Shown here in pieces: positions 5,096-24,580 of a DNA stretch of 64,000 nucleotides (its first letter is position 1; the number at the start of each line of letters is the position of its first letter). A model generated the notes under the pieces. That model made no database searches, had not been told where the DNA came from, and saw only the letters and a list, made by a program, of their open reading frames with translations. Origin of the DNA: a virus; the IMG/VR virus record IMGVR_UViG_3300022890_000011, positions 1-64,000 of that record; one strand, given 5' to 3'. The translations under genes were made by a program, and so were the position numbers.

Positions 5096-5482
5096 TTAAT
5101 TTTTTTTTAAATAGTATTCATTTATTTCAAAAATGAAATCATCTAATATTTTTTTCCATTCTATTATATCAAAACTCCATTTATCCTCAAATCTTAAAAA
5201 TAATTTTTTAGGATAATCTGGATTTTTTGGATCTATAACAATATCAATATGGTCATTTGTTTCACAATCTTCTCTATATATATTATATGTATGAAAATTA
5301 TTAAATTTATCATAATGATATGTAATTTCACCTATTTTAAACATTTGCCAAACTTCTGTAAATTTTGTTTTTGCAGTATAATATTTAAGTTTAATCTTTA
5401 AAGATTCACCTTCATATTTATTATTTATGTTTTGAAGAAATGTTTTTTCATTAAATATTTCATATAATTTTATATATTTCAT
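5096..5482 (-). CDS. Leader-tagged hypothetical protein
   Basis: MKYIKLYEIFNE N-terminus. Confidence 0.7.
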   Translation of the reverse strand: MKYIKLYEIFNEKTFLQNINNKYEGESLKIKLKYYTAKTKFTEVWQMFKIGEITYHYDKFNNFHTYNIYREDCETNDHIDIVIDPKNPDYPKKLFLRFEDKWSFDIIEWKKILDDFIFEINEYYLKKN

Positions 5483-5782: not shown

Positions 5783-6982
5783 CTACACACAAGCTAAAGA
5801 CTTGTGTGTTTCAGGTTTCATAGACTCATCTAACGACAACGCCTCCACCTGTTTTTGTTTAATGTCCGACTCAATCCCTGAACCAGACAATATTTTTAAT
5901 CCTTGTTTTAATATATTTTTAGCCGCATTAAAATCTCTATCATGTGTTGTATTACATGATGGACAAATCCATTCTCTATCTTTTAATGTTAAATCTTGGT
6001 TTATCCAACCACACTTAGAACACATTTTACTTGATGGGAAAAATCTATCAATTTTTACATATTGTTTATCATTCCATTTAGCTTTATATTCTAACATAGA
6101 ATAGAATGTACCTAAACTAACATCTACAAATGCTTGTGCTAACTTATGATTTTTCATCATATTTTTAACTGCTAAATCTTCTACACAGATTACATCGTGG
6201 TTTTTGATGATTTCTGTGGAAATTTTGTGTAAATAATCTTTTCTTACATTAGTTATTTTTTCGTGAATTATAGCAAGATTTTGTCTTTGTTTATTTCTTG
6301 ATGAACTTCCTTTTACCTTTTTAGATAATTGTCGTTGTTCATACTTTAATTTCTTTAAATTATTCTTTAATGTTTTAATATTTTCATAGACTTTACCATC
6401 ACTTAATATAGCTAAGTCTTTAATTCCAGTATCAATTCCTATTTTAGAACATGTTTTTTCAAATTGTTTATGTTGAACTTCACAGGTAATAGAAACATAA
6501 TATTTATCTGTTACTGATTTAGATATTGTGGCAAAGGCTATTTTACCATCAATTTCTTGGTGTAAATTAATTTTAATTCCTTCTTTAAATTTAGGTATAT
6601 TTAATTTATTATCTTTAATTAACACATTTTGTGGAATTTTAAACGATTGTCTATCATATTTTGATTTAAATTTTGGAAATTTAGTTTGTTTTCTAAAAAA
6701 TTTCATATATGATGTATCAAGATTTCTTAAGCCTGATTGAAGTGTTTGGCTATTAATTTCTTTTAACCAAATATAATTCTCATCTTTCTTTAATTGAGTT
6801 AAATCATTAGCATTATCATAATAATTAAGTGATTTCTTATCTTCACCAAGATAACTTTCTTTTCTTTTGTTTAGATAGTAATTAAAAACAAATCTATTTG
6901 CACCAAAATGTTTAGCCAACAAGATTTCTTGTTCTTTACCTGGATATATTCTAAACTTAAATGACTTAAATATTGTTTTCAT
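5783..6982 (-). CDS. tnpB: RNA-guided endonuclease TnpB
   Basis: HTH (FKFRIYP..Q), RuvC GIDTG / VEDL / DRDFNAAKNI, zinc finger CSKC...CPSC. Confidence 0.95.
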   Translation of the reverse strand: MKTIFKSFKFRIYPGKEQEILLAKHFGANRFVFNYYLNKRKESYLGEDKKSLNYYDNANDLTQLKKDENYIWLKEINSQTLQSGLRNLDTSYMKFFRKQTKFPKFKSKYDRQSFKIPQNVLIKDNKLNIPKFKEGIKINLHQEIDGKIAFATISKSVTDKYYVSITCEVQHKQFEKTCSKIGIDTGIKDLAILSDGKVYENIKTLKNNLKKLKYEQRQLSKKVKGSSSRNKQRQNLAIIHEKITNVRKDYLHKISTEIIKNHDVICVEDLAVKNMMKNHKLAQAFVDVSLGTFYSMLEYKAKWNDKQYVKIDRFFPSSKMCSKCGWINQDLTLKDREWICPSCNTTHDRDFNAAKNILKQGLKILSGSGIESDIKQKQVEALSLDESMKPETHKSLACV

Positions 6983-7087
6983 TAAAAGTATATATTAAAC
7001 TTTAAAAGTCATTTTTTACATTTTTTAATTTTTTTGTAAAATACTTTAATATTTATGAAAAGTATTCACAAAAAAAATTAAAAAGTT

Positions 7088-7501
7088 ATGTCTAAAAATT
7101 CTAATTACAATTCAACAAATCGTTCAAAACACTATTTAAAATGTCATTTAATCTTTGTATGTAAATACAGAAAGAAATTACTGGTTGGTCAGTTAAAAGA
7201 TGATATGAAACAATTATTACTAAATATTGCTTCTAAAAGTGATTTTGAAATAGAAGTCTTTGAAAGTGATATAGATCATATACATTTCTTAATTAGATAT
7301 ATACCAAGATTATCTATCACATCAATTGTCAGAAAGTTAAAACAGGAATCCACCTATCATATATGGCGTTCAGTTCATAGAAATTATTTATATAGTCATT
7401 TCTGGAAAGAAAGAACTTTTTGGTCAGATGGATATTTTGTTTGTTCAATTGGAGAAGCAAATCCGAATACTATTAAACAATATATTTTAAGTCAAGGATA
7501 A
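7088..7501 (+). CDS. tnpA: IS200-family Y1 transposase
   Basis: HLIFVCKYR, HUH motif DHIHFL, FWSDGYF, YILSQ. Confidence 0.95.
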   Translation: MSKNSNYNSTNRSKHYLKCHLIFVCKYRKKLLVGQLKDDMKQLLLNIASKSDFEIEVFESDIDHIHFLIRYIPRLSITSIVRKLKQESTYHIWRSVHRNYLYSHFWKERTFWSDGYFVCSIGEANPNTIKQYILSQG

Positions 7502-7561
7502 ATGTTTTTTATTCACTTACATCACACAAGCTAAAGACTTGTGTGTTTTACGTTCAGTGGT

Positions 7562-8696: not shown

Positions 8697-8970
8697 ATAT
8701 ATTGAATATATCGCTGAAAATAATGATAGTGTCATAAAATACGCTAATTATTTAGCTGAAGCTATTGATCCTAAAACTAATATAATACAAAGTTTTAAAT
8801 CTAAATCTGATAAAACCTTATTAAAAGATATTAAAAGGGGAATCATTTTCAAAATTGATGATGAATATATAATTGATCATAAAGGATATAATATATCCCT
8901 CGATGGAGATTTAAATATTCGATTAACTATGATAGAAAGAAATAATAAAATAAATAATATATTAAAATGA
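8689..8970 (+). CDS. Hypothetical protein with RxxKI C-terminal tag
   Basis: Ends ERNNKINNILK; ATGA overlap with thyA. Confidence 0.6.
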   Translation: MDEYIEYIAENNDSVIKYANYLAEAIDPKTNIIQSFKSKSDKTLLKDIKRGIIFKIDDEYIIDHKGYNISLDGDLNIRLTMIERNNKINNILK

Positions 8971-9806
8971 AAGAAATTATTAAAGCAGATAAGTATTATA
9001 TTGATAATTTGAATAAAATTATGAAAATAGGGTGTTTAGATGAAAATCCAAGACCTAAGTATAGAGATGGAACTCCAGCATATACCAAATTCATCACAGG
9101 TGTTTTCGAAGAATATGATATTTCTAAGGGGGAATTTCCTATTCCCACACTCCGAAACACAGCGGTTAAAACAGGAATCAAGGAAATTTTATGGATATAT
9201 CAAAAGCAGTCAAATTCCTTAGAAGATGCTCGTAATATGGGTATAAATTGGTGGAATGATTGGGACATTGGAAATAATTCTATCGGACAAAGATATGGAG
9301 CTACTGTTAAAAAATGGAACTTAATAGATGATTTACTAAAAACCTTAACAGATGATCCATTTTCTCGTAGACATATAATGAATATGTATCAATATTCCGA
9401 CCTCCAAGAAACTAAGGGACTTTTTCCATGTGCTTATGAAACTATTTGGTCTGTGGAAAAGAAAGGTAATGATTATATCTTAGATATGACACTTATCCAG
9501 AGAAGTTGTGATTTTTTAGTAGCTAAATTTATAAACCAAGCACAATATGTAGCCCTTCAAATGATGGTAGCTGGACATTTAGGTTATAAAATTGGTAATT
9601 TTAGACATTTGATACAAAATCTTCATATTTATGATAGACATAACGATGCGGTTGATGAACTACTTAATCGAACTCCAATAAATAAACAACCTACAATAGA
9701 ACTAATAGCCAATAAAAATTTTTATGATTATAAAATAGAAGATTTTAAAATCAAAAATATCGAAGGTATAATAAAAATCAAAAGCGATTTAGATTTGGGT
9801 ATCTAA
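8967..9806 (+). CDS. thyA: Thymidylate synthase
   Basis: EILW, GQRYG, SRRHI, LFPCA, QRSCD, NLHIYDRH. Confidence 0.95.
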   Translation: MKEIIKADKYYIDNLNKIMKIGCLDENPRPKYRDGTPAYTKFITGVFEEYDISKGEFPIPTLRNTAVKTGIKEILWIYQKQSNSLEDARNMGINWWNDWDIGNNSIGQRYGATVKKWNLIDDLLKTLTDDPFSRRHIMNMYQYSDLQETKGLFPCAYETIWSVEKKGNDYILDMTLIQRSCDFLVAKFINQAQYVALQMMVAGHLGYKIGNFRHLIQNLHIYDRHNDAVDELLNRTPINKQPTIELIANKNFYDYKIEDFKIKNIEGIIKIKSDLDLGI

Positions 9807-9887
9807 ATTGGATAATTTTTAAACAAACTATTAAAATAAAAATATATAAAGTATAACTTAAATTGAAAAAATAAATTAAAATAAAAT

Positions 9888-10256
9888 ATGAAAAAATATG
9901 ATGTTAAACTTTTTATAAATGATGAATTATTTATAGAAAATGAATTTAATTTTAAAACTGATATCTTTACAAAAAGAAGAGAAATAGATATAGTAATTGA
10001 TGATTTAAATGAAAAAGTTAATTTTTTCATTCAAAATGATGAATTTACAGAAAAAGATAAAATTAATAAAATTAAAAATCTTTTTATAAAAGCAGTAAAT
10101 TTATTAACAGAATTTAAAAAAGATAATTCTTCGATAACTTATAAAGAAAATATTAGTGAAATTGAAGATATTTTATCAAATTTTGGTTCTCTTGATAAAG
10201 ATGATGGTGGAATATTTTCACAATTAAATTATATGTTAGAAGATTTAGATGAATAA
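9888..10256 (+). CDS. Hypothetical protein
   Basis: 122-aa ORF with typical codon usage. Confidence 0.6.
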   Translation: MKKYDVKLFINDELFIENEFNFKTDIFTKRREIDIVIDDLNEKVNFFIQNDEFTEKDKINKIKNLFIKAVNLLTEFKKDNSSITYKENISEIEDILSNFGSLDKDDGGIFSQLNYMLEDLDE

Positions 10257-10566
10257 GATAACAAATAAAGAACTAAAAATAGGTGACATTTGTTATTTTA
10301 AATCTAAAACAGCAAATGAAACTATTCAAGGTGAAATATTATCGATTGAAGATTGTAAATATCAGAAAACTTTAAATGGTAAAGAATGTTATGAAAAATA
10401 TAAAAATAAAATTTTATCAGAAAAAGATTTTATTTTAAAATATGTATTACATAAAAATGTTATAATAACTATATATGGATGGATTATAAATGATAATTGG
10501 AATATAAAAGAAACATTGGGGGAAATTAAATTTAGTTGTTCAAATTATGATATATTTGTTTTTTAA
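10249..10566 (+). CDS. Hypothetical protein
   Basis: 105-aa ORF; LKIGD SH3/KOW-like start. Confidence 0.55.
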   Translation: MNKITNKELKIGDICYFKSKTANETIQGEILSIEDCKYQKTLNGKECYEKYKNKILSEKDFILKYVLHKNVIITIYGWIINDNWNIKETLGEIKFSCSNYDIFVF

Positions 10567-10587
10567 ATATGACAATGTAACACTTAC

Positions 10588-10640
10588 ACATAACGGTTTT
10601 AATAAAAAATCGTTATAATGTTTTTTATTTATTGTTAGCG
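10588..10640 (+). mobile_element. attC-like site 1
   Basis: ACATAAC ... AATAAAAAA/TTTTTTATT stem ... GTTAGCG. Confidence 0.6.
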
Positions 10641-10678
10641 TTTCGTTTTTGAGCGTTGGTAATGCAAAATATTATATT

Positions 10679-10873
10679 ATGACAATAGAAGAATTAAGAA
10701 AAACACAATTTAGAAAAGGCGATAAAGCAAAATACTACAATGTTATTGCTGAAATAATAGAAATTGAACACACCGAAGCCCTGTTAGGATTACGACAAGG
10801 CAATGATGAAATAGAGTGGGTAAGATGTGAAAATATCACATATATCCCTTGTGTGTTGGCAAATGAACGCTAA
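10679..10873 (+). CDS. Cassette-borne small hypothetical protein
   Basis: MTIEELRKTQF...WVRCENI...ANER; the stop codon lies inside CGCTAAC of attC-like site 2. Confidence 0.65.
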   Translation: MTIEELRKTQFRKGDKAKYYNVIAEIIEIEHTEALLGLRQGNDEIEWVRCENITYIPCVLANER

Positions 10874-10929
10874 CAATGTATATGATTTCGGTTGTTTTTC
10901 ACAACTGAATTATATACTAAACGTTATGT
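10868..10929 (+). mobile_element. attC-like site 2
   Basis: CGCTAAC ... GTATATGATTTCGGTTG/CAACTGAATTATATAC stem with bulged base ... GTTATGT (62 bp). Confidence 0.7.
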
Positions 10930-11059
10930 GTAGGTGTGGTTGGGTTTTTGCTAAATTTAATTTGGAGAACTGAAAGAAATTTTAGAAAAAAGGAGGTTGA
11001 AAACTCACAAACAACATTTTTATTAATATATAGAATATAAAATCAATAAAACTACATAA

Positions 11060-11586
11060 ATGATACAATTAAAAAGATATGAAAGTTTTAAAGCCTTATT
11101 GAAACCTAGTTTTAGTTATTGGTTTTCAATAAAAATAAATAGTGAAGGTGAAGCAAAAAAGGTCCTTGAAAAATTATTTGAAAATAATTATATTTGGCAA
11201 AGTAGTAGTTCCTTCAAAAGTGAAGATTTTATTCATCTTAATTCAAAATATAAAAAAAACTTATTAATGTGTTCAAACCATTCAAACCTTATAAATTACC
11301 TATGACAATGACTATTTATACTGGTGATGAATATAGTAATTTTGATAATTATGAATATAATATGTATGAAATAGAAATATGGTATAGAAAAAAAATGTGG
11401 GTAAGAGATTCATCTGGGCCATTAGTGCGATTAAATACTAAAAGTTCTAGGGAAAATAATATTATTAGTTTTGAATTAAAAAATCTTGAAAATAAAAATA
11501 TTAATGAAATATGTGACAAAGTAATGTCTATGAGTGATGAAGATATAAAGGCGCAAGTAGAAGCAAAAAAATTGAACTTATTATAA
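11060..11586 (+). CDS. Doubly tagged protein split by a -1 frameshift (ORFs 11060-11305 and 11269-11586)
   Basis: Leader MIQLKRYESF on the first ORF, tag EAKKLNLL on the second; in-phase A_AAA_AAC at 11254-11260 joins them. Confidence 0.6.
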
Positions 11587-11883
11587 ATGAATCATGTTAA
11601 ATTATATGAATCAGTGGGTAAAAAAGCAACATTTGTTTATGATGCAGAAGAACAATTTAGCTTAGTTATTTATATAGATAATAAATTATTAGGTATTTTT
11701 AGTGATACTTATATAAGTGATATGATGATACTAATGGATATGCTTGGTTATACTTGTGAATCACTTGAACTTGAAAATAAAGACTTAATTGATTGGTGGT
11801 TAAGTTTACCAAATAAAAAATGTCCGAAAACTCTCGATGAAATAAAAACTAGAATTGAAGGTAGTAAATTAGGTTTATTATAA
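11587..11883 (+). CDS. Doubly tagged hypothetical protein
   Basis: MNHVKLYES ... IEGSKLGLL. Confidence 0.75.
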   Translation: MNHVKLYESVGKKATFVYDAEEQFSLVIYIDNKLLGIFSDTYISDMMILMDMLGYTCESLELENKDLIDWWLSLPNKKCPKTLDEIKTRIEGSKLGLL

Positions 11884-12309
11884 CAATCCCATTTTCTTAG
11901 TCTCAATTTTTTCCCTTAATTCTTTTAAATCAACACTAATACAATTAGTTTCTACTGTGCCTAATTCCCAAGGATCACTAATAAAAAATTCTACAGAATT
12001 ACCTTTAACATTCAGTATTTCCATTCCTGGACTTGAAGACCAATCTTCATTTTCTTTATGTATATCAGAATCACTTACAATAACATAATCAATTTCATAA
12101 CCTATTTTTTCCCATAATGAATCATCTTTAAAAATATCTTCACCAGTAGCAAATAATTGTACATCATTAGCAACAACTTTAACTGATATTACATCGTCTC
12201 TTTTCAAAATTGAATAATCTTTTTTGAAAACATTATAAAAATCATCTGTTATAGGTATTAAACAAACACCTCTATCCTCACTTCTACAATACATTGTAGC
12301 TACATACAT
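11878..12309 (-). CDS. C-tagged hypothetical protein
   Basis: Ends IETKKMGLL; tail-to-tail with another GLL gene. Confidence 0.7.
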   Translation of the reverse strand: MYVATMYCRSEDRGVCLIPITDDFYNVFKKDYSILKRDDVISVKVVANDVQLFATGEDIFKDDSLWEKIGYEIDYVIVSDSDIHKENEDWSSSPGMEILNVKGNSVEFFISDPWELGTVETNCISVDLKELREKIETKKMGLL

Positions 12310-20143: not shown

Positions 20144-21748
20144 ATGATTTTGTCACAATATGTTGAAGTTAAAATTTCTAATAACCAAATCAAATATTAT
20201 ATATTGAAAGGTTATGATGTAAAAGGAAACAATGAAATACGAAAAATAAAAGTATCAGATTTACCATTAAATAGTGGTCAAAAAATAGAAGTTCAATGTG
20301 ATATATGTAGTAATAAAAAAATTATTACAATGAATAGATATCAAATAAATACCAATAATGGTGAAAAATTATATACATGTAGTAGGAAATGTGCTGAATT
20401 TAAAAATAAACAAACATGTTTAGATAATTATGGAGTTGATAACATTTCTAAATTAGAAAGTGTAAAAATTAAAAAAATTGAAACATGTTTAGATAATTAT
20501 GGAGTTGAATTTCCACAACAATCTGAAAAAATATTTGAAAAAAGTAAAAATACAAAGAAATTAAAATATAATGATGAAAATTATAATAATCTTAAAAAAA
20601 GAATTCAAACATGTTTAAATAAATATGGTTGTGTATCACCTTCACAAAATACTAATATTAAAAAGAAAATGAAAATTAATCAATTTGAATCAAACAAAGA
20701 AAAAATATTAGAAAAATATAAAGATTTAAAAATAGTCAATTTTGATAAAGATGATAAATATGTGATTGAATGTGATTGTGATCAAAACCATACTTTCAAT
20801 ATTGAGTATAAATTACTATGGCAAAGAGTAAATGCTAAAACAACTTTATGTACAGTATGCAACGAAATCGATAGAAAACAGTCTGGGTTGGAAATAAACT
20901 TAATTAATTTTATTGAAAAAAACTATAATGGAGAAATTTTAATAGGTGATAGAGATGTTATTAAACCACTAGAATTAGATATTTATCTACCAGATTTAAA
21001 ATTGGCTTTTGAATTCAATGGGTTATATTGGCATAATGAATTAAATAAAGAAAACAATTATCATTTAAATAAAACAGAAAATTGCGTTGAAAAAGACACA
21101 CAACTTATTCATATTTGGGAAGATGATTGGTTATATAAACAACATATAGTAAAGTCAATGATATTAAACAAATTAGGTAATACTCCAACTAAAATATATG
21201 CTAGAAAATGTAAAATTGAAGTCATTCAAGATAACAAATTGATAAGAAATTTTTTGGATGAAAATCACCTTCAAGGTTTTGTTGGTTCAAGTATTAAATT
21301 AGGTCTTTATTATGAAAGAAATCTTGTAAGTTTAATGACTTTTGGAAAATCAAGGAAATCAATGGGCACAACTGCAAAAGAAGGCGATTATGAATTAATA
21401 AGATTTTGTAATAAGTTAAATACCAATGTTATTGGTGGTGCTGGTAAATTATTTAAACATTTCACTAGAAATTATTCTTTTAATGAAATAACATCATATG
21501 CTGACAGATCACATTCAAACGGTAAATTGTATGAAAATTTAGGATTTGAATTTGTTTCAAAAACTAAACCTAATTATTATTACATAATAGAAGGTTTAAG
21601 AAAATATAGGTTTAGTTTTAGAAAAGATATATTAATAAAGGAAGGTTTTGATCCAAATAAAAGTGAACATGAAATAATGTTGGGTAGAGGTATTTATAGA
21701 ATATATAATAGTGGAAATCTAAAATATAAATATAAGAAAGTGATTTAA
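20144..21748 (+). CDS. Putative homing endonuclease (Zn motifs, TCLxxYGV repeats, PD-(D/E)xK domain, GNAT-like C-terminus)
   Basis: CDIC, CTVC, ELDIYLPDLKLAFEFNGLYWH, IHIWEDDW, YELIRFC, SYADRS..GKLYENLGF. Confidence 0.7.
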   Translation: MILSQYVEVKISNNQIKYYILKGYDVKGNNEIRKIKVSDLPLNSGQKIEVQCDICSNKKIITMNRYQINTNNGEKLYTCSRKCAEFKNKQTCLDNYGVDNISKLESVKIKKIETCLDNYGVEFPQQSEKIFEKSKNTKKLKYNDENYNNLKKRIQTCLNKYGCVSPSQNTNIKKKMKINQFESNKEKILEKYKDLKIVNFDKDDKYVIECDCDQNHTFNIEYKLLWQRVNAKTTLCTVCNEIDRKQSGLEINLINFIEKNYNGEILIGDRDVIKPLELDIYLPDLKLAFEFNGLYWHNELNKENNYHLNKTENCVEKDTQLIHIWEDDWLYKQHIVKSMILNKLGNTPTKIYARKCKIEVIQDNKLIRNFLDENHLQGFVGSSIKLGLYYERNLVSLMTFGKSRKSMGTTAKEGDYELIRFCNKLNTNVIGGAGKLFKHFTRNYSFNEITSYADRSHSNGKLYENLGFEFVSKTKPNYYYIIEGLRKYRFSFRKDILIKEGFDPNKSEHEIMLGRGIYRIYNSGNLKYKYKKVI

Positions 21749-23214
21749 AAATCACTTTCTAATTCTTTTAATTCTTTCTTTAATTCTTCCCATTCAGAAT
21801 GTTTTTGCATCATAATTTTCTTAAAACTTTTACGATCTGCATAAACTTCACCCATAACTTGGTTTACAACACCAATTTCATTTTTAAATACACTTCCATT
21901 TAATAAAACAATATCATCTTTTTCAATTTGTAGTTGATGACCATTAAATAACGTGTAATTTTTTCCTTTAACTTTTTGGCCTTTGTAACTATCAGCAGAT
22001 ATGTTAAATTGTCGAATTGTCATTGGATAAAGTGAGGCGAAATCATAACAACATGTCCATTTTGACATTCCTCTAACAGGTGGTAAAACAAAACCACCAG
22101 ACACACTACCTTCTTTTGCTTTACTTCCATCATCAAAATTATCATCTCTACATAGAACAATATTTTTTTGATCTTTAAGTTTATTTCTTAAAATACCTTC
22201 TGTTATAGCTAACGTAGAGAAACCATTTTGAACAGTTACTTTTGATTTGGTCGCCATCGCATAAAGAATATCAATATATTTTTGTTTTTCGTGTATTAAT
22301 TGAACTAGTACACTATCGACAACATTATAATAAATAAAATCTCTTTTATTCGTATTATATAAATGTTTAAGATCTCCTGTATATGCAACTTTACCAAACT
22401 CTTGACCTAGTATTGCTCCAGCAACAAAATCAAGTGCATTGCTTTCTTTTACTTTTACTGATGTGTCCCATTTTGCATAAAGTTCCATATAATCAACAAT
22501 AATCTTATGAGCTGGCATTTCTGAATAGTCATTTTGTTTCCATGATTCTTTTAATTTGCCTGTTAATGATGCTACTGTAGGATCTATACCGATTTTTCTC
22601 GCTCTATTTACAAGGAATACCCAGTCATAATTTATGAAATTCCATCCTGATATACAAGCCATTACTGGTACATATACTTTAAAAAAATTGAGTAAAAGTT
22701 CATATTCATTATTATAACAAATATATTTGAAACCCCATTTTTTATCAAATTTTTTCCCATATTTAACATTTAAATCATTTTCAATTGAACTTATTTCTTT
22801 TTTAGTGAGTGGGTCTATTCCCAAAACCAATGCTTTATCTTTATTAACGATTGAGATTGAAAGAATTGCTGATTCTGCTAAATGAGGTTCTGGTTTCTTA
22901 TCTAATATTTCGTTTTCTATGTCAACAAAAAATATATTTGGCTCTTTATAATCAAATAATATTGATTGGTCTTCACTGGGAAGAGAACCTAAGAAATCAT
23001 AAACAGCATATTTATTTGGATATTTTGTGTATATTTCTTTAACTGATTTACCATTCCACATTACATATTTTCCAGACTTCTCTTTATCATGGTCTGATGT
23101 TGGTATAAATTTTGTAGGTCTTCCCCACGGGAAGTATTTTAAACGGACATTACCTGCATCATTGATATAGCTACATAACAACTTCGAATTTTTAAATTCA
23201 TAGTCTATAAGCAT
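21745..23214 (-). CDS. Family-B DNA polymerase, N-terminal subunit (exonuclease + motif A) of a split polymerase
   Basis: Exo I VDIENE, Exo II GWNFINYDW, Exo III YNVVD, GGFV, motif A YDFASLYP...NIS; ends after fingers helix DRKSFKK with no KxxxNSxYG or DTDS. Confidence 0.88.
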   Translation of the reverse strand: MLIDYEFKNSKLLCSYINDAGNVRLKYFPWGRPTKFIPTSDHDKEKSGKYVMWNGKSVKEIYTKYPNKYAVYDFLGSLPSEDQSILFDYKEPNIFFVDIENEILDKKPEPHLAESAILSISIVNKDKALVLGIDPLTKKEISSIENDLNVKYGKKFDKKWGFKYICYNNEYELLLNFFKVYVPVMACISGWNFINYDWVFLVNRARKIGIDPTVASLTGKLKESWKQNDYSEMPAHKIIVDYMELYAKWDTSVKVKESNALDFVAGAILGQEFGKVAYTGDLKHLYNTNKRDFIYYNVVDSVLVQLIHEKQKYIDILYAMATKSKVTVQNGFSTLAITEGILRNKLKDQKNIVLCRDDNFDDGSKAKEGSVSGGFVLPPVRGMSKWTCCYDFASLYPMTIRQFNISADSYKGQKVKGKNYTLFNGHQLQIEKDDIVLLNGSVFKNEIGVVNQVMGEVYADRKSFKKIMMQKHSEWEELKKELKELESDF

Positions 23215-23317
23215 GTGTGTATTATTACTTTTTTTATTTTAAAAACATAGTCAATTAACATTTTTGACTTTTTAAAATTAATATATAGTAATATAAAATA
23301 AATCGAAAGTTAAGTTT

Positions 23318-24580
23318 ATGAAAAAGTTAGAAAAATTTATAGTTAAAGCCATTAATGTTCATGCTGATAAGTACGATTATAGTTTAGTAGTATATGAAAA
23401 TTCACAAAAGAAAGTTAAAATTATATGTCCTGAACATGGTATTTTCGAACAAAGACCAGCAAATCATAATCGAGGACAGGGTTGTCCTTCTTGTGCAGGT
23501 GTAAAAAGGAACACACAATCAGATTTTATATATAAAGCTTCTGAAGTACATAACAATAAATACGATTATAGTTTAGTGGAATATAAAAACAATAAAACTA
23601 AAATTAAAATTATATGCCATGAACATGGCGTTTTCGAACAGAGGCCTGATAATCATCTAAACAAAAAAACAGGATGTCCTATATGTGCCGATAACCAGTT
23701 ATATTCATCTTGTGAATATATTGAGAAAGCCAAAAAAGTACATGACAATAAATATGATTATTCTTTAGTTATTTATAAAAATGCTAAATCCATGATAAAA
23801 ATTATTTGTCCAGAACACGGCGAATTTAAACAAAAGGCATATTCACATTTAGATGGTATAGGTTGTTCTAAATGTTCAGAAAATTACAATTATTCAACAG
23901 AAGAATATATTGAAAAAGTTAAAAAAGTTCACGGTAATAAATATGATTATTCTTTAGCTGAATATAAAAACAATAAAACTAAGATTAAAATTATTTGTTC
24001 TATTCATGGTATATTTGAACAAAATCCAAAATCACATTTAAATGGACATGGTTGTCAGAAATGTTTTTTTGATGAGAACACAGACAATAAACAAGATTTT
24101 GTTAATAAGTCTAAAAACAAACACGGTAATAAATATGATTATTCTTTAGTTGAATATATAAATAGTTATACAAATGTTAAAATTATATGTCCAAATCATG
24201 GTATATTTGAACAACGACCATCAACACATACCAATGGTGGTGGTTGTTCTTTATGTAAAGAAAGTAAAGGTGAAAGGGAAGTATCTTTATATTTAGATGA
24301 TAAGAATATTAAATATGAAAGGCAAAAGATATTTGAAGATTGTAAAGATGTTAGACATTTACCTTTTGATTTTTATTTACCAAAATATAATATGTGTATA
24401 GAATATGATGGCTTACAACATTTTAAACCTATAGAATTTTTTGGTGGAGAAAAAACTTTTTTATTAACAAAGGAACATGATAGAATTAAGAATGAATATT
24501 GTGAAGATAATGGTATTAAATTAATAAGAATAAAATATAATCAAAAAATTAAAAAACAGTTAAATTTGGTCAAGAATTGA
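23318..24580 (+). CDS. Putative homing endonuclease with Zn-binding YDYS/CPxHG repeats and a C-terminal PD-(D/E)xK domain
   Basis: 5 repeats HxxKYDYS...IICPEHGxFEQ...GCxxC; LPFDFYLP...IEYDGLQH. Confidence 0.78.
   Translation: MKKLEKFIVKAINVHADKYDYSLVVYENSQKKVKIICPEHGIFEQRPANHNRGQGCPSCAGVKRNTQSDFIYKASEVHNNKYDYSLVEYKNNKTKIKIICHEHGVFEQRPDNHLNKKTGCPICADNQLYSSCEYIEKAKKVHDNKYDYSLVIYKNAKSMIKIICPEHGEFKQKAYSHLDGIGCSKCSENYNYSTEEYIEKVKKVHGNKYDYSLAEYKNNKTKIKIICSIHGIFEQNPKSHLNGHGCQKCFFDENTDNKQDFVNKSKNKHGNKYDYSLVEYINSYTNVKIICPNHGIFEQRPSTHTNGGGCSLCKESKGEREVSLYLDDKNIKYERQKIFEDCKDVRHLPFDFYLPKYNMCIEYDGLQHFKPIEFFGGEKTFLLTKEHDRIKNEYCEDNGIKLIRIKYNQKIKKQLNLVKN

Follow-up and report, generated by a model that had tools for sequence, protein, structure and literature searches.

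A phage locus resembling an exchangeable gene cassette, a kind so far seldom reported in phages

A moron of lambdoid phages is an extra gene between two phage genes, with its own flanking signals and a deviant base composition. Lambdoid morons are not known to carry defined recombination sites, nor are their flanks known to form a structured family whose arms covary. In the PeSL cassettes of T4-type phages, conserved stem-loops flank small non-essential ORFs, an arrangement that resembles the present one, and PeSLs have been proposed as mediators of modular gene exchange and of small circles (PMC2839356, PMC4122927). Also close are the clusters of attC sites lacking an integrase (CALINs), 17 of which were reported in phages by Qi et al. 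2023 with HattCI and Infernal as attC models; IntI1 recombined five of six phage attC sites at G|TT (PMC9892861). P12002L_attC1 of Polaribacter phage P12002L, the published site most like site 1 of this study, was predicted by HattCI and is the one without a verified IntI1 junction (PMC9892861).

Here we analysed a locus in a window of 64,000 nucleotides (positions 1 to 64,000 of IMG/VR record IMGVR_UViG_3300022890_000011) and in the 166 kb of that phage genome (58% complete). We consider it fairly probable that the segment 10575-10970 was imported and belongs to an integron-like cassette system circulating among phages, the hosts of which are probably Bacteroidota. Compared contigs and records are designated by L numbers.

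Anatomy of the locus

Two sites, called attC-like from their anatomy, lie 230 nt apart, with no integrase in the 166 kb analysed (Table 1). Site 1 reads ACATAAC...GTTAGCG and site 2 reads CGCTAAC...GTTATGT, and their boxes pair crosswise as the sequence-only reading had described: the outer inverted repeat ACACTTACACATAACG pairs 10580-10595 with 10922-10937 at 15 of 16 positions, and the inner repeat pairs ATTGTTAGCGTT (10631-10642) with AACGCTAACAAT (10866-10877) at 12 of 12. That reading had also placed the ORF stop within TAAC, and the stop codon is indeed the TAA of CGCTAAC. No further copies of either site were found elsewhere in this genome.

Table 1. Features of the cassette locus (positions in the window)
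Feature	Position	Strand	Description
Outer left arm R''X	10575-10594	+	20-mer ATGTAACACTTACACATAAC, 3' terminus conserved among 'X-type' units
Site 1 body ('hairpin 1')	10595-10633	+	spacer, L'', loop, L', spacer TATT
Hairpin 1 L''	10601-10609	+	AATAAAAAA
Hairpin 1 loop	10610-10620	+	TCGTTATAATG
Hairpin 1 L'	10621-10629	+	TTTTTTATT
Inner left arm R'(1)	10634-10642	+	GTTAGCGTT, complementary to 10866-10874
Conserved 5' leader	10643-10678	+	box GCGTTGG at 10653-10659
Cargo ORF, 64 aa	10679-10873	+	ATG 10679, stop TAA 10871-10873
Conserved 3' box in cargo ORF	10853-10864	+	GTGTTGGCAAAT
Inner right arm R''(1)	10866-10874	+	AACGCTAAC, contains stop codon; identical ORF end in L003
Site 2 body ('hairpin 2')	10875-10922	+	spacer AAT, imperfect 17-bp hairpin 10878-10917, spacer TAAAC
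Outer right arm R'X and X-type 5' leader	10923-10970	+	GTTATGTGTAGGTGT(GGTTGG), then leader ...CTAAATTTAATTTGGAGAAC

Site 1 measures 63 nt with its arms (10580-10642), or 53 nt from core to core, and site 2 measures 72 nt (10866-10937), with related sites at 60-135 nt; both site 1 with arms and site 2 fall within the attC length range of about 57-141 bp. The AAC/GTT triplets are invariant in the 14 hairpin-1 loci except L021 (AAT), in the 11 hairpin-2 loci and in the L001 array. Beyond these triplets the RYYYAAC/GTTRRRY pattern is not matched: the deviation that the sequence-only reading had noted for the left boxes is real and extends to all four, since ACATAAC, CGCTAAC, GTTAGCG and GTTATGT each break the pattern in at least one position. 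The arms pair over 9-15 nt, compared with 7 nt for integron R boxes.

The internal hairpins, each claimed to carry a bulged base, were confirmed for site 2, which folds with one bulged T and two G-T pairs, but the hairpin of site 1 is better paired as AATAAAAAA/TTTTTTATT around TCGTTATAATG. An interpretation of site 1 as a terminator hairpin AACGGTTTT/AAAATCGTT with a T-run and a TATAAT promoter was dropped, as the L''/L' pairing has compensatory changes. Folding as single-stranded DNA gave z-scores of -5 to -6 for either reconstituted site pair and about -2 for the existing sites. The ORF-sense strand folded better than the opposite strand, and its G-T pairs would be G-U in RNA. An Rfam scan of 9500-12000 at permissive thresholds yielded no attC match and one weak, unrelated hit, and blastn of 9800-11700 against deposited phages found no match.

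The cargo is predicted to form an N-terminal helix and a five-stranded SH3/Tudor/KOW-like barrel (AlphaFold2 pLDDT 91.9), and a Foldseek search of the PDB returned generic SH3/Tudor/KOW barrels alone (best E = 0.07). Searches of Pfam and PHROGs with the ORF and its 32 relatives gave no match. The family comprises 36 cluster representatives, and relatives of 88-94% identity occur in other contexts. Homologues in cassette arrays, whose absence would have weighed against the sequence-only reading, were found in arm-bracketed units of L067 and L069.

Recurrence of the sites and covariation of their arms

Other such sites, expected under the sequence-only reading, were found in large numbers in uncultured phage contigs. 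Exact copies of a 24-mer of hairpin 1 were found in 10 IMG/VR contigs and in 3 contigs of bacterial or MAG origin; there is one copy per genome, and each precedes another gene. Hairpin 1 was also single-copy per genome in five other records checked. It aligns with the published P12002L_attC1, with the same loop TCGTTTTAATG, and around this one loop L'' and L' have changed in a compensatory manner between this locus, L060 and P12002L_attC1. Hairpin-1 bodies are linked to the right-hand arm and leader, and their left arms are variable. The leader at 10643-10678 is about 95% identical to that of L001 and L002 and is also present in L010, L015 and L022, where it precedes unrelated ORFs. A consensus scan detected a weak sigma-70-like promoter match at 10649-10678 (9/12) and zero terminator-like elements, and no Bacteroidota -33/-7 promoter (TAnnTTTG) was found by eye. 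An nhmmer search with the hairpin-1 profile found no diverged copy on the minus strand at 10905-10937, so that the right outer arm does not represent hairpin 1 in inverted form.

For hairpin 2, exact matches to a 22-mer core were found in 10 further IMG/VR contigs. In each of them the core is bracketed by two variable arms, xxxxTAACG and GTTxxxx, and the R' arms 3' of it differ among loci. The spacers are 3 and 5 nt in site 2 and 5 and 3 nt in its ten relatives. Hairpin 2 was absent from two Prolixibacteraceae genomes that hold hairpin 1. The X-arm 20-mer ATGTAACACTTACACATAAC is exact in 34 metagenome contigs, where at least 20 different sequences or bodies follow it, the change falling directly after TAAC. 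Among the distinct bodies after the X arm, 21 of 25 have the build spacer, L'', loop of 9-88 nt, complementary L', spacer and GTT, with spacers of 2-6 nt, a build present in 2% of shuffles. What is conserved among the bodies is structure rather than sequence.

The X 20-mer in L062 holds the last codon, stop and arm of a complete unit, and the outer right arm of this locus is identical in L062, including the same G/A mismatch. The segment beginning at 10875 or 10878 and ending at 10968 is 75-89% identical to segments of L034-L036, L040, L046, L051, L054, L058 and L062. By this comparison, the left outer arm is the 3' end, and the right one the 5' module, of a common X-type unit; an attC private to this phage is not evident in them.

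We examined the pairing of arms across loci. In the hairpin-1 family, at 9 of 14 loci the arm after the site is complementary, for 8 nt or more, to the end of the ORF that follows it, compared with 8 of 162 cross-pairings, and six covarying arm types were distinguished, for instance GTTAGCGTT/AACGCTAAC and GTTAGCTTT/AAAGCTAAC. This rule is kept at 7 of 10 hairpin-2 loci and from unit to unit in the L001 array, where several units have their 5' arm about 55 nt into the ORF. In terms of predicted pairing, the arm covariation is the integron chain rule, by which the 5' arm of a cassette is complementary to its own R''.

Homology breakpoints were compared between L001 and L002, which diverge directly after GCTAACG and rejoin at TAACG, and in which hairpin 1 and the leader accompany the ORF, lying 5' of it. 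Over 10585-10861 the identity to phages that are otherwise unrelated is 84%, and the G+C content of the cassette region is 0.27-0.33, compared with 0.18-0.22 in the flanks. Together, these two sequence signatures show transfer of the unit between unrelated phages. In addition, one 'shell' (site, arm and 45-nt leader, with GCGTTGGCAAATGAAMGCTAAC at the other end) encloses four unrelated ORFs, which is not predicted by a pure whole-cassette model.

A proposed insertion history and its alternatives

We infer the recombination reaction, its strand, its enzyme and the promoter activity as follows. The cassette, about 10594-10873, would consist of hairpin 1, the arm GTTAGCGTT, a short leader, the 64-aa ORF and the complementary arm AACGCTAAC, and it would sit between the halves of a second attC-like site, formed by the left arm ACACTTACACATAAC and, on the right, hairpin 2 with GTTATGTGTAGGTGT. 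The simplest history would be a site-specific reaction in which a circular cassette, through its own site, recombined with a closed 'X-type' site that the phage already carried, with the crossover at the conserved AAC/GTT core, right after TAAC in the ORF sense and at G|TT on the other strand. The outcome would be two hybrid sites whose arms pair crosswise. Before insertion, the empty site would read ...CACATAAC|AATGTATATG (10593/10594 joined to 10874), and the circle junction would read ...CGCTAA|CGGTTTTAAT (10873 joined to 10594). The gene would be reversed relative to classical integrons, and the folded site 5' of the ORF would probably be the source of expression signals. The enzyme would be a tyrosine recombinase of the Xer/IntI kind, which could come from the host, a co-infecting phage or the missing 42% of the genome.

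Some parts of this history were already in the sequence-only reading, which had proposed attC x attC insertion of a cassette into a phage-borne attC. The anatomy, the exchanged arms and the covariation agree with that proposal, but its resident site does not hold, nor probably do its excision coordinates. Site 1 had been taken as the resident attC of the phage, but it goes with the ORF, almost without variation, in unrelated phages. The excised unit had been placed at 10635-10923 (289 bp), with G|TT on the ORF-sense strand; since the homology breakpoints lie just after TAAC(G), the mobile unit is more likely hairpin 1 plus ORF, 10594-10873 (280 bp), the mirror image of a classical cassette. 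We propose a crossover after TAA or TAAC, at 10593|10594 or 10594|10595, and the breakpoints suggest a G|TT crossover on the ORF-antisense strand; with variable arms to the left and right of every body, the crossover may also lie on the other side. Relatives with an empty site, which had been suggested as a check, were not found: the pattern joining the X arm directly to hairpin 2 had no match in IMG/VR, and the only contig with this phage's flank in the X 20-mer search (L066, 99% identical) is filled. Nor was a circular form seen. No IMG/VR relatives of the flanking proteins (10249-10563 and 11269-11583) were found.

The claimed lack of an integrase was borne out for the 166 kb of this genome (58% complete), where no tyrosine (PF00589) or serine (PF00239) recombinase and no relative of the L030 recombinase was found, nor any intI with adjacent attI and Pc beside the cassette. 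Ten further phage records with cassettes, of which three are at least 95% complete, likewise gave no tyrosine recombinase. Two other phages, L030 and L072, carry arrays that stop about 50 nt upstream of a gene for a 270-aa Xer-like tyrosine recombinase, which scores under the cut-offs of the XerA, XerC/D and integron-integrase models.

An alternative that we regard as unlikely is that the sites are portable regulatory modules, either terminator hairpins or promoter/5'-leader hairpins, with arms that form an RNA helix closing the transcript, and that genes are shuffled by homologous or microhomology recombination in 20-65-nt blocks, as in PeSL cassettes or 'morons'. The bodies and the X 20-mer are near-identical across unrelated phages and could serve as homology patches, and PeSL-mediated shuffling, including mini-circles, is documented (PMC2839356, PMC4122927). 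The position of the sites upstream of ORFs, the conserved leaders after the arms, the better fold of the ORF-sense strand with its potential G-U pairs, the different ORFs inside one conserved 5'/3' shell and the lack of a recombinase in most cassette-bearing phages all fit such modules. They leave unexplained, however, why the outer AAC/GTT of the arms is invariant while the inner 4-10 nt vary and covary, and why breaks fall exactly at TAAC. PeSLs recur many times per genome, whereas the site families are single-copy here, and hairpin 1 is so in five other records too. IntI1 has recombined sites of the same build (PMC9892861). The 5' arm inside the ORF in several L001 units is not a transcript end, the consensus scan found no terminator and a weak promoter match, and the arrays of L030 and L072 abut a recombinase gene.

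Two further explanations were weighed. The first is single-strand transposition: Y1 (HUH) transposases of the IS200/IS605 kind recognize hairpins and cleave behind a fixed tetranucleotide. Such an enzyme would account for a unit that is inserted after TAAC, ends in TAAC and has a hairpin a few bases inside its left end, and an element of this kind lies 3 kb away (TnpA, 7130-7495, Y1_Tnp E = 2e-32; TnpB, 5783-6982). We nevertheless consider it very improbable: that element has a hairpin of its own (CACACAAG...CTTGTGTG, 7524-7546), which shows no relation to hairpins 1 and 2; a Y1 transposase is missing from five other phage records with cassettes (three near complete); and IS200/IS605 elements bear a hairpin at either end, lack inverted arms that covary and are known neither for arrays nor for the chain rule. 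As regards IS200/IS605 elements or MITEs in general, the arms here vary by unit, the copy is single and, apart from the shared TAAC, the target is not duplicated. The last explanation, inverted repeats that arose by chance on either side of an ordinary small gene of the phage, is scarcely credible. Taken singly, each repeat is a roughly once-per-genome event, near chance in an AT-rich genome: perfect 12-nt inverted repeats (at least 4 G/C, 100-600 nt apart) numbered three in the real genome and 0-3 (mean 1.5) in ten Markov-simulated genomes of the same composition, and the 15/16 repeat is the sole member of its class, with a simulation mean of 0.4. The nesting of both repeats at one locus on shared TAAC/GTTA cores has an estimated expectation of roughly 1e-3. 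This nesting, together with the recurrence of both sites and both outer arms in dozens of contigs with covarying partners, places the locus beyond chance and already contradicts this explanation.

It is the integron-like reading, as corrected above, that is supported. It is possible, as a more tentative extension, that phages, probably of Bacteroidota, run their own mirror-polarity integron-like system, in which platform phages, with an array ending at an attI-like junction beside a small Xer-like recombinase, would pass on single-gene cassettes that express themselves, tRNA and methyltransferase cargo among them, to attC-like sites in unrelated phages that lack a recombinase, such as this large one; this locus would be a complete insertion footprint. 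The gain and exchange of small accessory genes by phages are largely unexplained beyond homologous and illegitimate recombination, and a site-specific cassette mechanism common to unrelated phages would offer a route that is defined and open to test, for which specific sites, a candidate circle of 280 bp and candidate recombinases (L030, L072) are now available. If true, the integron concept would widen to viruses and to reversed gene polarity; the gain from this locus alone, one cassette, is modest.

Comparison with known systems

Like lambdoid morons, the locus holds a single extra gene with a base composition unlike that of its neighbours. PeSLs carry a sigma-70 promoter and a terminator and occur many times per genome, whereas the sites here are single-copy, with no terminator and a weak promoter match; moreover, PeSLs act through homologous recombination and, unlike the present sites, lack covarying AAC/GTT-anchored arms.

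With classical and sedentary integrons (PMC8618304, PMC9024848), the locus shares the conserved AAC/GTT triplets, an apparent R''-L''-loop-L'-R' arrangement in which spacers are unpaired and one base is bulged, a cassette 5' arm complementary to its own 3' arm and the frequent location of the stop codon in the R'' box. Near-identical sites with differing cargo recall the Vibrio repeats, which are homogeneous attC families, and in L030 and L072 the array abuts a gene of the Xer/IntI superfamily, as in integrons. The ORF, however, faces the other way relative to its site: a classical cassette is a promoterless ORF followed by its own attC, whereas here the site lies 5' of the ORF and the cassette seemingly brings its own expression signals. 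The arms are also longer (9-15 nt) and fit RYYYAAC/GTTRRRY poorly, and the 166 kb of this genome (58% complete) contain no recombinase, attI or Pc.

The phage CALINs are also among the closest systems. In P12002L, another phage genome without an integrase, attC1 lies upstream of gp35 on its sense strand, as site 1 does here, and gp35, a methyltransferase gene, is bracketed by complementary arms GTTAGGCAC/GTGCCTAAC. The CALIN sites, of 55-75 nt, have the same build of xxxTAAC(G), spacer, imperfect hairpin, spacer and GTTAxxx. The divergent orientation of the P12002L site was treated as an oddity, and mirror polarity, arm covariation, site families and a phage recombinase platform were not described (PMC9892861). 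In contrast to the CALINs, the present locus is a single cassette with two sites, both from large, nearly invariant families spread across many uncultured phages, and its outer arms also pair, as in a complete insertion footprint.

The locus and its cargo

The 166.6-kb record is a linear virus genome of 25% G+C (completeness 58% by the CheckV estimate), phage-like by gene content, and the window is its first 64 kb. The sequence-only reading had described an ORF between two attC-like sites whose cores pair crosswise; this description held, and the ORF and both inverted repeats were re-found, the outer repeat pairing at 15 of 16 positions and the inner at 12 of 12 (see the table). The G+C content was 0.27-0.33 at the locus and lower, 0.18-0.22, in the flanks. 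No second copy of site 1 (upstream of the ORF) or site 2 (downstream) was found elsewhere in the 166.6-kb genome. Simulated genomes of equal composition contained a comparable 12/12 repeat ~1.5 times and a 15/16 repeat ~0.4 times per genome, and either repeat taken singly is unremarkable; both nested on one TAAC/GTTA core are expected about once per thousand genomes by our estimate.

The cargo is a protein of 64 aa with relatives at 88-94% identity in other contexts. The 36 cluster representatives of its family range over 55-110 aa, most being 55-70 aa, and show the motif MTIEEF...GD.A.Y...F.E.L.GL...WVRCEN. The structure model (pLDDT 91.9) shows a helix and a barrel of the SH3/Tudor/KOW kind. 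Its best PDB match reached E = 0.07, and the protein matched no family in Pfam or PHROGs. Two of six further homologues examined were bracketed by arms of their own, and a third adjoined an arm-bracketed methyltransferase. In the phage contigs L001 and L002, the cargo protein has a long form (110-114 aa), apparently a fusion by read-through. Its gene has a degenerate 3' box and no longer has the arm and stop; the C-terminus comes from a 128-nt segment that carries arms of its own (GTTAGCAAC/GTTGCTAAC), and a 12-nt indel at that arm distinguishes L001 from L002.

Elsewhere in the window, a complete IS200/IS605-type insertion sequence occupies 5783-7546, part of its hairpin sequence (CACACAAGCTAAAGA) recurring at 5786-5800, and within 20144-24580 the polymerase gene looks split by mobile endonuclease insertions.

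Features of the window and of related loci, with coordinates
Feature	Location	Strand or remark
Outer inverted repeat	window 10580-10595 / 10922-10937	
Inner inverted repeat	window 10631-10642 / 10866-10877	
Cargo ORF	window, ATG 10679 to TAA 10871-10873	stop is the TAA of CGCTAAC
Box GCG(T/A)(T/G)GGC(A)AA(A/T)	window 10853-10864 and 10653-10659; L001 6260-6275, 6640-6650	also in L010, L011, L015, L022, L023, L026
Thymidylate synthase	window 8967-9806	
Further phage-like genes	window	dual-specificity phosphatase, DNA polymerase pieces, HNH endonucleases, methyltransferase
TnpB (OrfB_IS605 + Cas12f1-like TNB)	window 5783-6982	minus
Y1 TnpA	window 7130-7495	plus
IS hairpin CACACAAG-CTAAAGA-CTTGTGTG	window 7524-7546	
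DNA polymerase fragment	window 21745-23214	minus
Large HNH/homing-endonuclease ORFs flanking the polymerase fragment	window 20144-21748 and 23318-24580	
Apparent read-through fusion segment	L001 5226-5353; L002 1676-1792	
Region with the gene of the 270-aa Xer-like recombinase	L030 4793-5664	reverse
Region with the relative of the L030 recombinase	L072 4940-5816	76%

Site families and covarying arms in other genomes

Many further such sites were found in IMG/VR, metagenome and bacterial contigs. A 24-mer of site 1 was matched exactly by ten contigs of IMG/VR and by three of bacterial or MAG origin. Two of the latter three are Prolixibacteraceae, and in one of these two the match falls within prophage-like sequence. 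A 41-nt element built on it was single-copy in all five records checked (three at least 95% complete) and invariably lay ~20-80 nt upstream of a gene, a different one each time. The site 2 hairpin 22-mer matched exactly in ten further IMG/VR contigs with a constant layout (xxxxTAACG, 4 nt, 40-nt hairpin, GGT, GTTxxxx) and variable arms; the spacers were 3 and 5 nt in the window and 5 and 3 in relatives. The 20-mer of the left outer arm, or X arm (10575-10594), matched exactly in 34 metagenome contigs, where it was followed by at least 20 different sequences, starting at the base after TAAC. At ~605-928 in L020, a contig of the cultured Prolixibacteraceae Sunxiuqinia indica, hairpin 1 occurs within prophage-like sequence, ahead of an 80-aa ORF also beginning MTIE..., which hints at hosts of the cassette family, though not of the window's phage.

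One layout (2-6-nt spacer, 12-nt box, 9-88-nt loop, complementary box matching at least 9.5 of 12, 0-5-nt spacer, GTT) was found downstream of the X arm in 21 of 25 distinct bodies. Shuffled sequence gave a rate of 2%, and TAAC positions picked at random in these loci, some of them real sites, gave 19%. Since the box sequences differ widely, it is structure, not sequence, that is kept. The loop TCGTT(A/T)TAATG was common to site 1, a body in contig L060 and the published predicted phage site P12002L_attC1, on stems AATAAAAAA/TTTTTTATT, GATAAACAA/TTGTTTATC and GGCTAAACGG/CCGTTTTAGCC, respectively. Folded as single-stranded DNA, reconstituted closed sites reached z of -5 to -6 and hybrid sites as present z of ~-2; G-T pairs made the ORF-sense strand more stable than its complement.

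In the hairpin-1 family, the 8-10 nt from the GTT right after the site were the reverse complement of an AAC-ending sequence located at, or shortly past, the stop of the following ORF. This match held in 9 of 14 loci versus 8 of 162 cross-pairings of arms and ORF ends from different loci; the window's type is GTTAGCGTT/AACGCTAAC, and others are GTTAGCTTT/AAAGCTAAC, GTTGTGCTT/AAGCACAAC, GTTGTAAA/TTTACAAC, GTTATAAAAC/GTTTTATAAC and GTTAGAAA/TTTCTAAC. The same complementarity was found in 7 of 10 hairpin-2 loci. Of the seven arm pairs in L001, six belong to consecutive units and the seventh is nested within ORF1 (5226-5353). Each is perfect over 8-10 nt and private to its unit; pairing ended exactly at GTT and AAC, with G next after the right arm. 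The pattern is integron-like, because the integron crossover falls inside the R' box and yields such arms.

Some units carried other features. L013 has hairpin 1 followed by no ORF but a 95-nt suppressor tRNA (region 249-400, tRNA 298-392; anticodon TTA, reading UAA), and is a tRNA cassette because a near-matching arm closes it (GTTATATAC ... GTATTATAACG); in L069, a tRNA-like T-arm lies within an arm-bracketed unit (1135-1709). The box GCGTTGGCAAAT recurs in two contexts, after 5' arms and before 3' arms. The box GCG(T/A)(T/G)GGC(A)AA(A/T) stands in direct orientation ~10-20 nt past 5' arms and 5-8 nt ahead of 3' arms; some units translate it (as ALAN), and in L011 it lies outside coding sequence.

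The probable mobile unit and its proposed crossover

Window positions 10585-10861 were 84% identical to L001 and L002, phages otherwise without similarity to the window's phage, and within this segment the leader was more conserved than the coding part. At six loci, hairpin 1 kept the same right-hand arm and 45-nt leader with differing left arms, and L001 and L002 diverged directly past GCTAACG, likeness resuming at TAACG. These sequence comparisons place the probable crossover after TAAC on the sense strand; seen from the opposite strand, such a crossover obeys the integron rule G|TT and the ORF points the other way. The unit would then be site, arm, leader, ORF and arm, 10594-10873 in the window. 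The unit of the sequence-only reading, 10635-10923, is an alternative with equally good folds, and may still hold because each body family has variable arms on both sides. One conserved shell encloses four unrelated ORFs.

The outer arms are those of a common X-type unit. The contig L062 holds a complete one: TAACG, hairpin 2, arm GTTATGTGTAGGTGTGGTTGG, leader, 146-aa ORF and ...ATG TAA CACTTACACATAAC, its arms sharing the single G/A mismatch of the window's outer repeat. Window 10875/10878-10968 was 75-89% identical to X-type 5' modules of nine metagenome loci. Closed X sites (arm, hairpin and matching arm, no ORF between) were present in L035 and L036/L046/L051, where the body resembles hairpin 2, and in L040, L045 and L060, where it is of another kind, so that the present locus is best read as a closed X site apparently split by a cassette; closed sites can also be just junctions of two X-type units. 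No partner for either outer arm was found elsewhere in the 64-kb window, and the empty allele proposed by the sequence-only reading did not turn up among the contigs searched. TATGACAAT occurs three times in the window: just ahead of the X arm (10568-10576, reading ATG ACA ATG TAA), at the start of the cassette ORF (10677-10685, MTI...) and at the likely start of the next-but-one gene (11299-11307, MTMTI...). A remnant start or a microhomology may explain it.

Recombinase, rival readings and known systems

The lack of an integrase noted for the window extends to the whole 166.6-kb record (58% complete), and no tyrosine recombinase was found in ten other records carrying these sites. A screen of the 167 distinct ORFs in the collected loci that reach 180 aa or more gave one tyrosine recombinase-like protein, later confirmed as such (L030, 270 aa; PF00589, 2e-20). 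The models nearest to it are those of XerA, XerC and integron integrases, with all scores under cut-offs. It starts ~50 nt beyond the final arm of a hairpin-2-containing array, and its relative in L072 likewise lies ~50 nt downstream of four arm-bracketed units. Their common junction, ...TAAC|TATAATTAAA, is a candidate attI-like site, and the arrangement looks like a putative integron platform in some phages (n=2). A 614-aa ORF directly follows the recombinase in L030, and L072 has a long ORF too, extending past the part read.

Chance inverted repeats are excluded: beyond the nesting estimate, the matter is settled by the site families and covariation in other genomes. Portable regulatory modules or RNA-helix arms shuffled by homologous recombination, PeSL-like (PMC2839356), would account for conserved blocks and common shells around different ORFs, but this explanation is unlikely: it does not say why AAC/GTT stays invariant where the covarying arms end, why the breakpoints are exact or why the sites are single-copy. 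Movement by a Y1 transposase, whose gene lies beside TnpB in the window, is far less probable still; five other phage records with cassettes have no such gene, and the anatomy of the unit is unlike that of a Y1 element.

Qi et al. 2023 (PMC9892861) described 17 phage attC clusters that lack an integrase, and IntI1 recombined five of six phage attC sites tested, at G|TT. Site 1 is homologous to P12002L_attC1, the sole tested site without a verified junction with IntI1 (PMC9892861); in the Polaribacter phage P12002L, this site lies upstream, on the sense strand, of the methyltransferase gp35, which is bracketed by GTTAGGCAC/GTGCCTAAC. By this likeness, the window locus would be a further, minimal example of such clusters. 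Four features have no description in PMC9892861 or the other literature searched: the reversed polarity, the length and covariation of the arms, the invariance of the site families and the candidate platform in phages.
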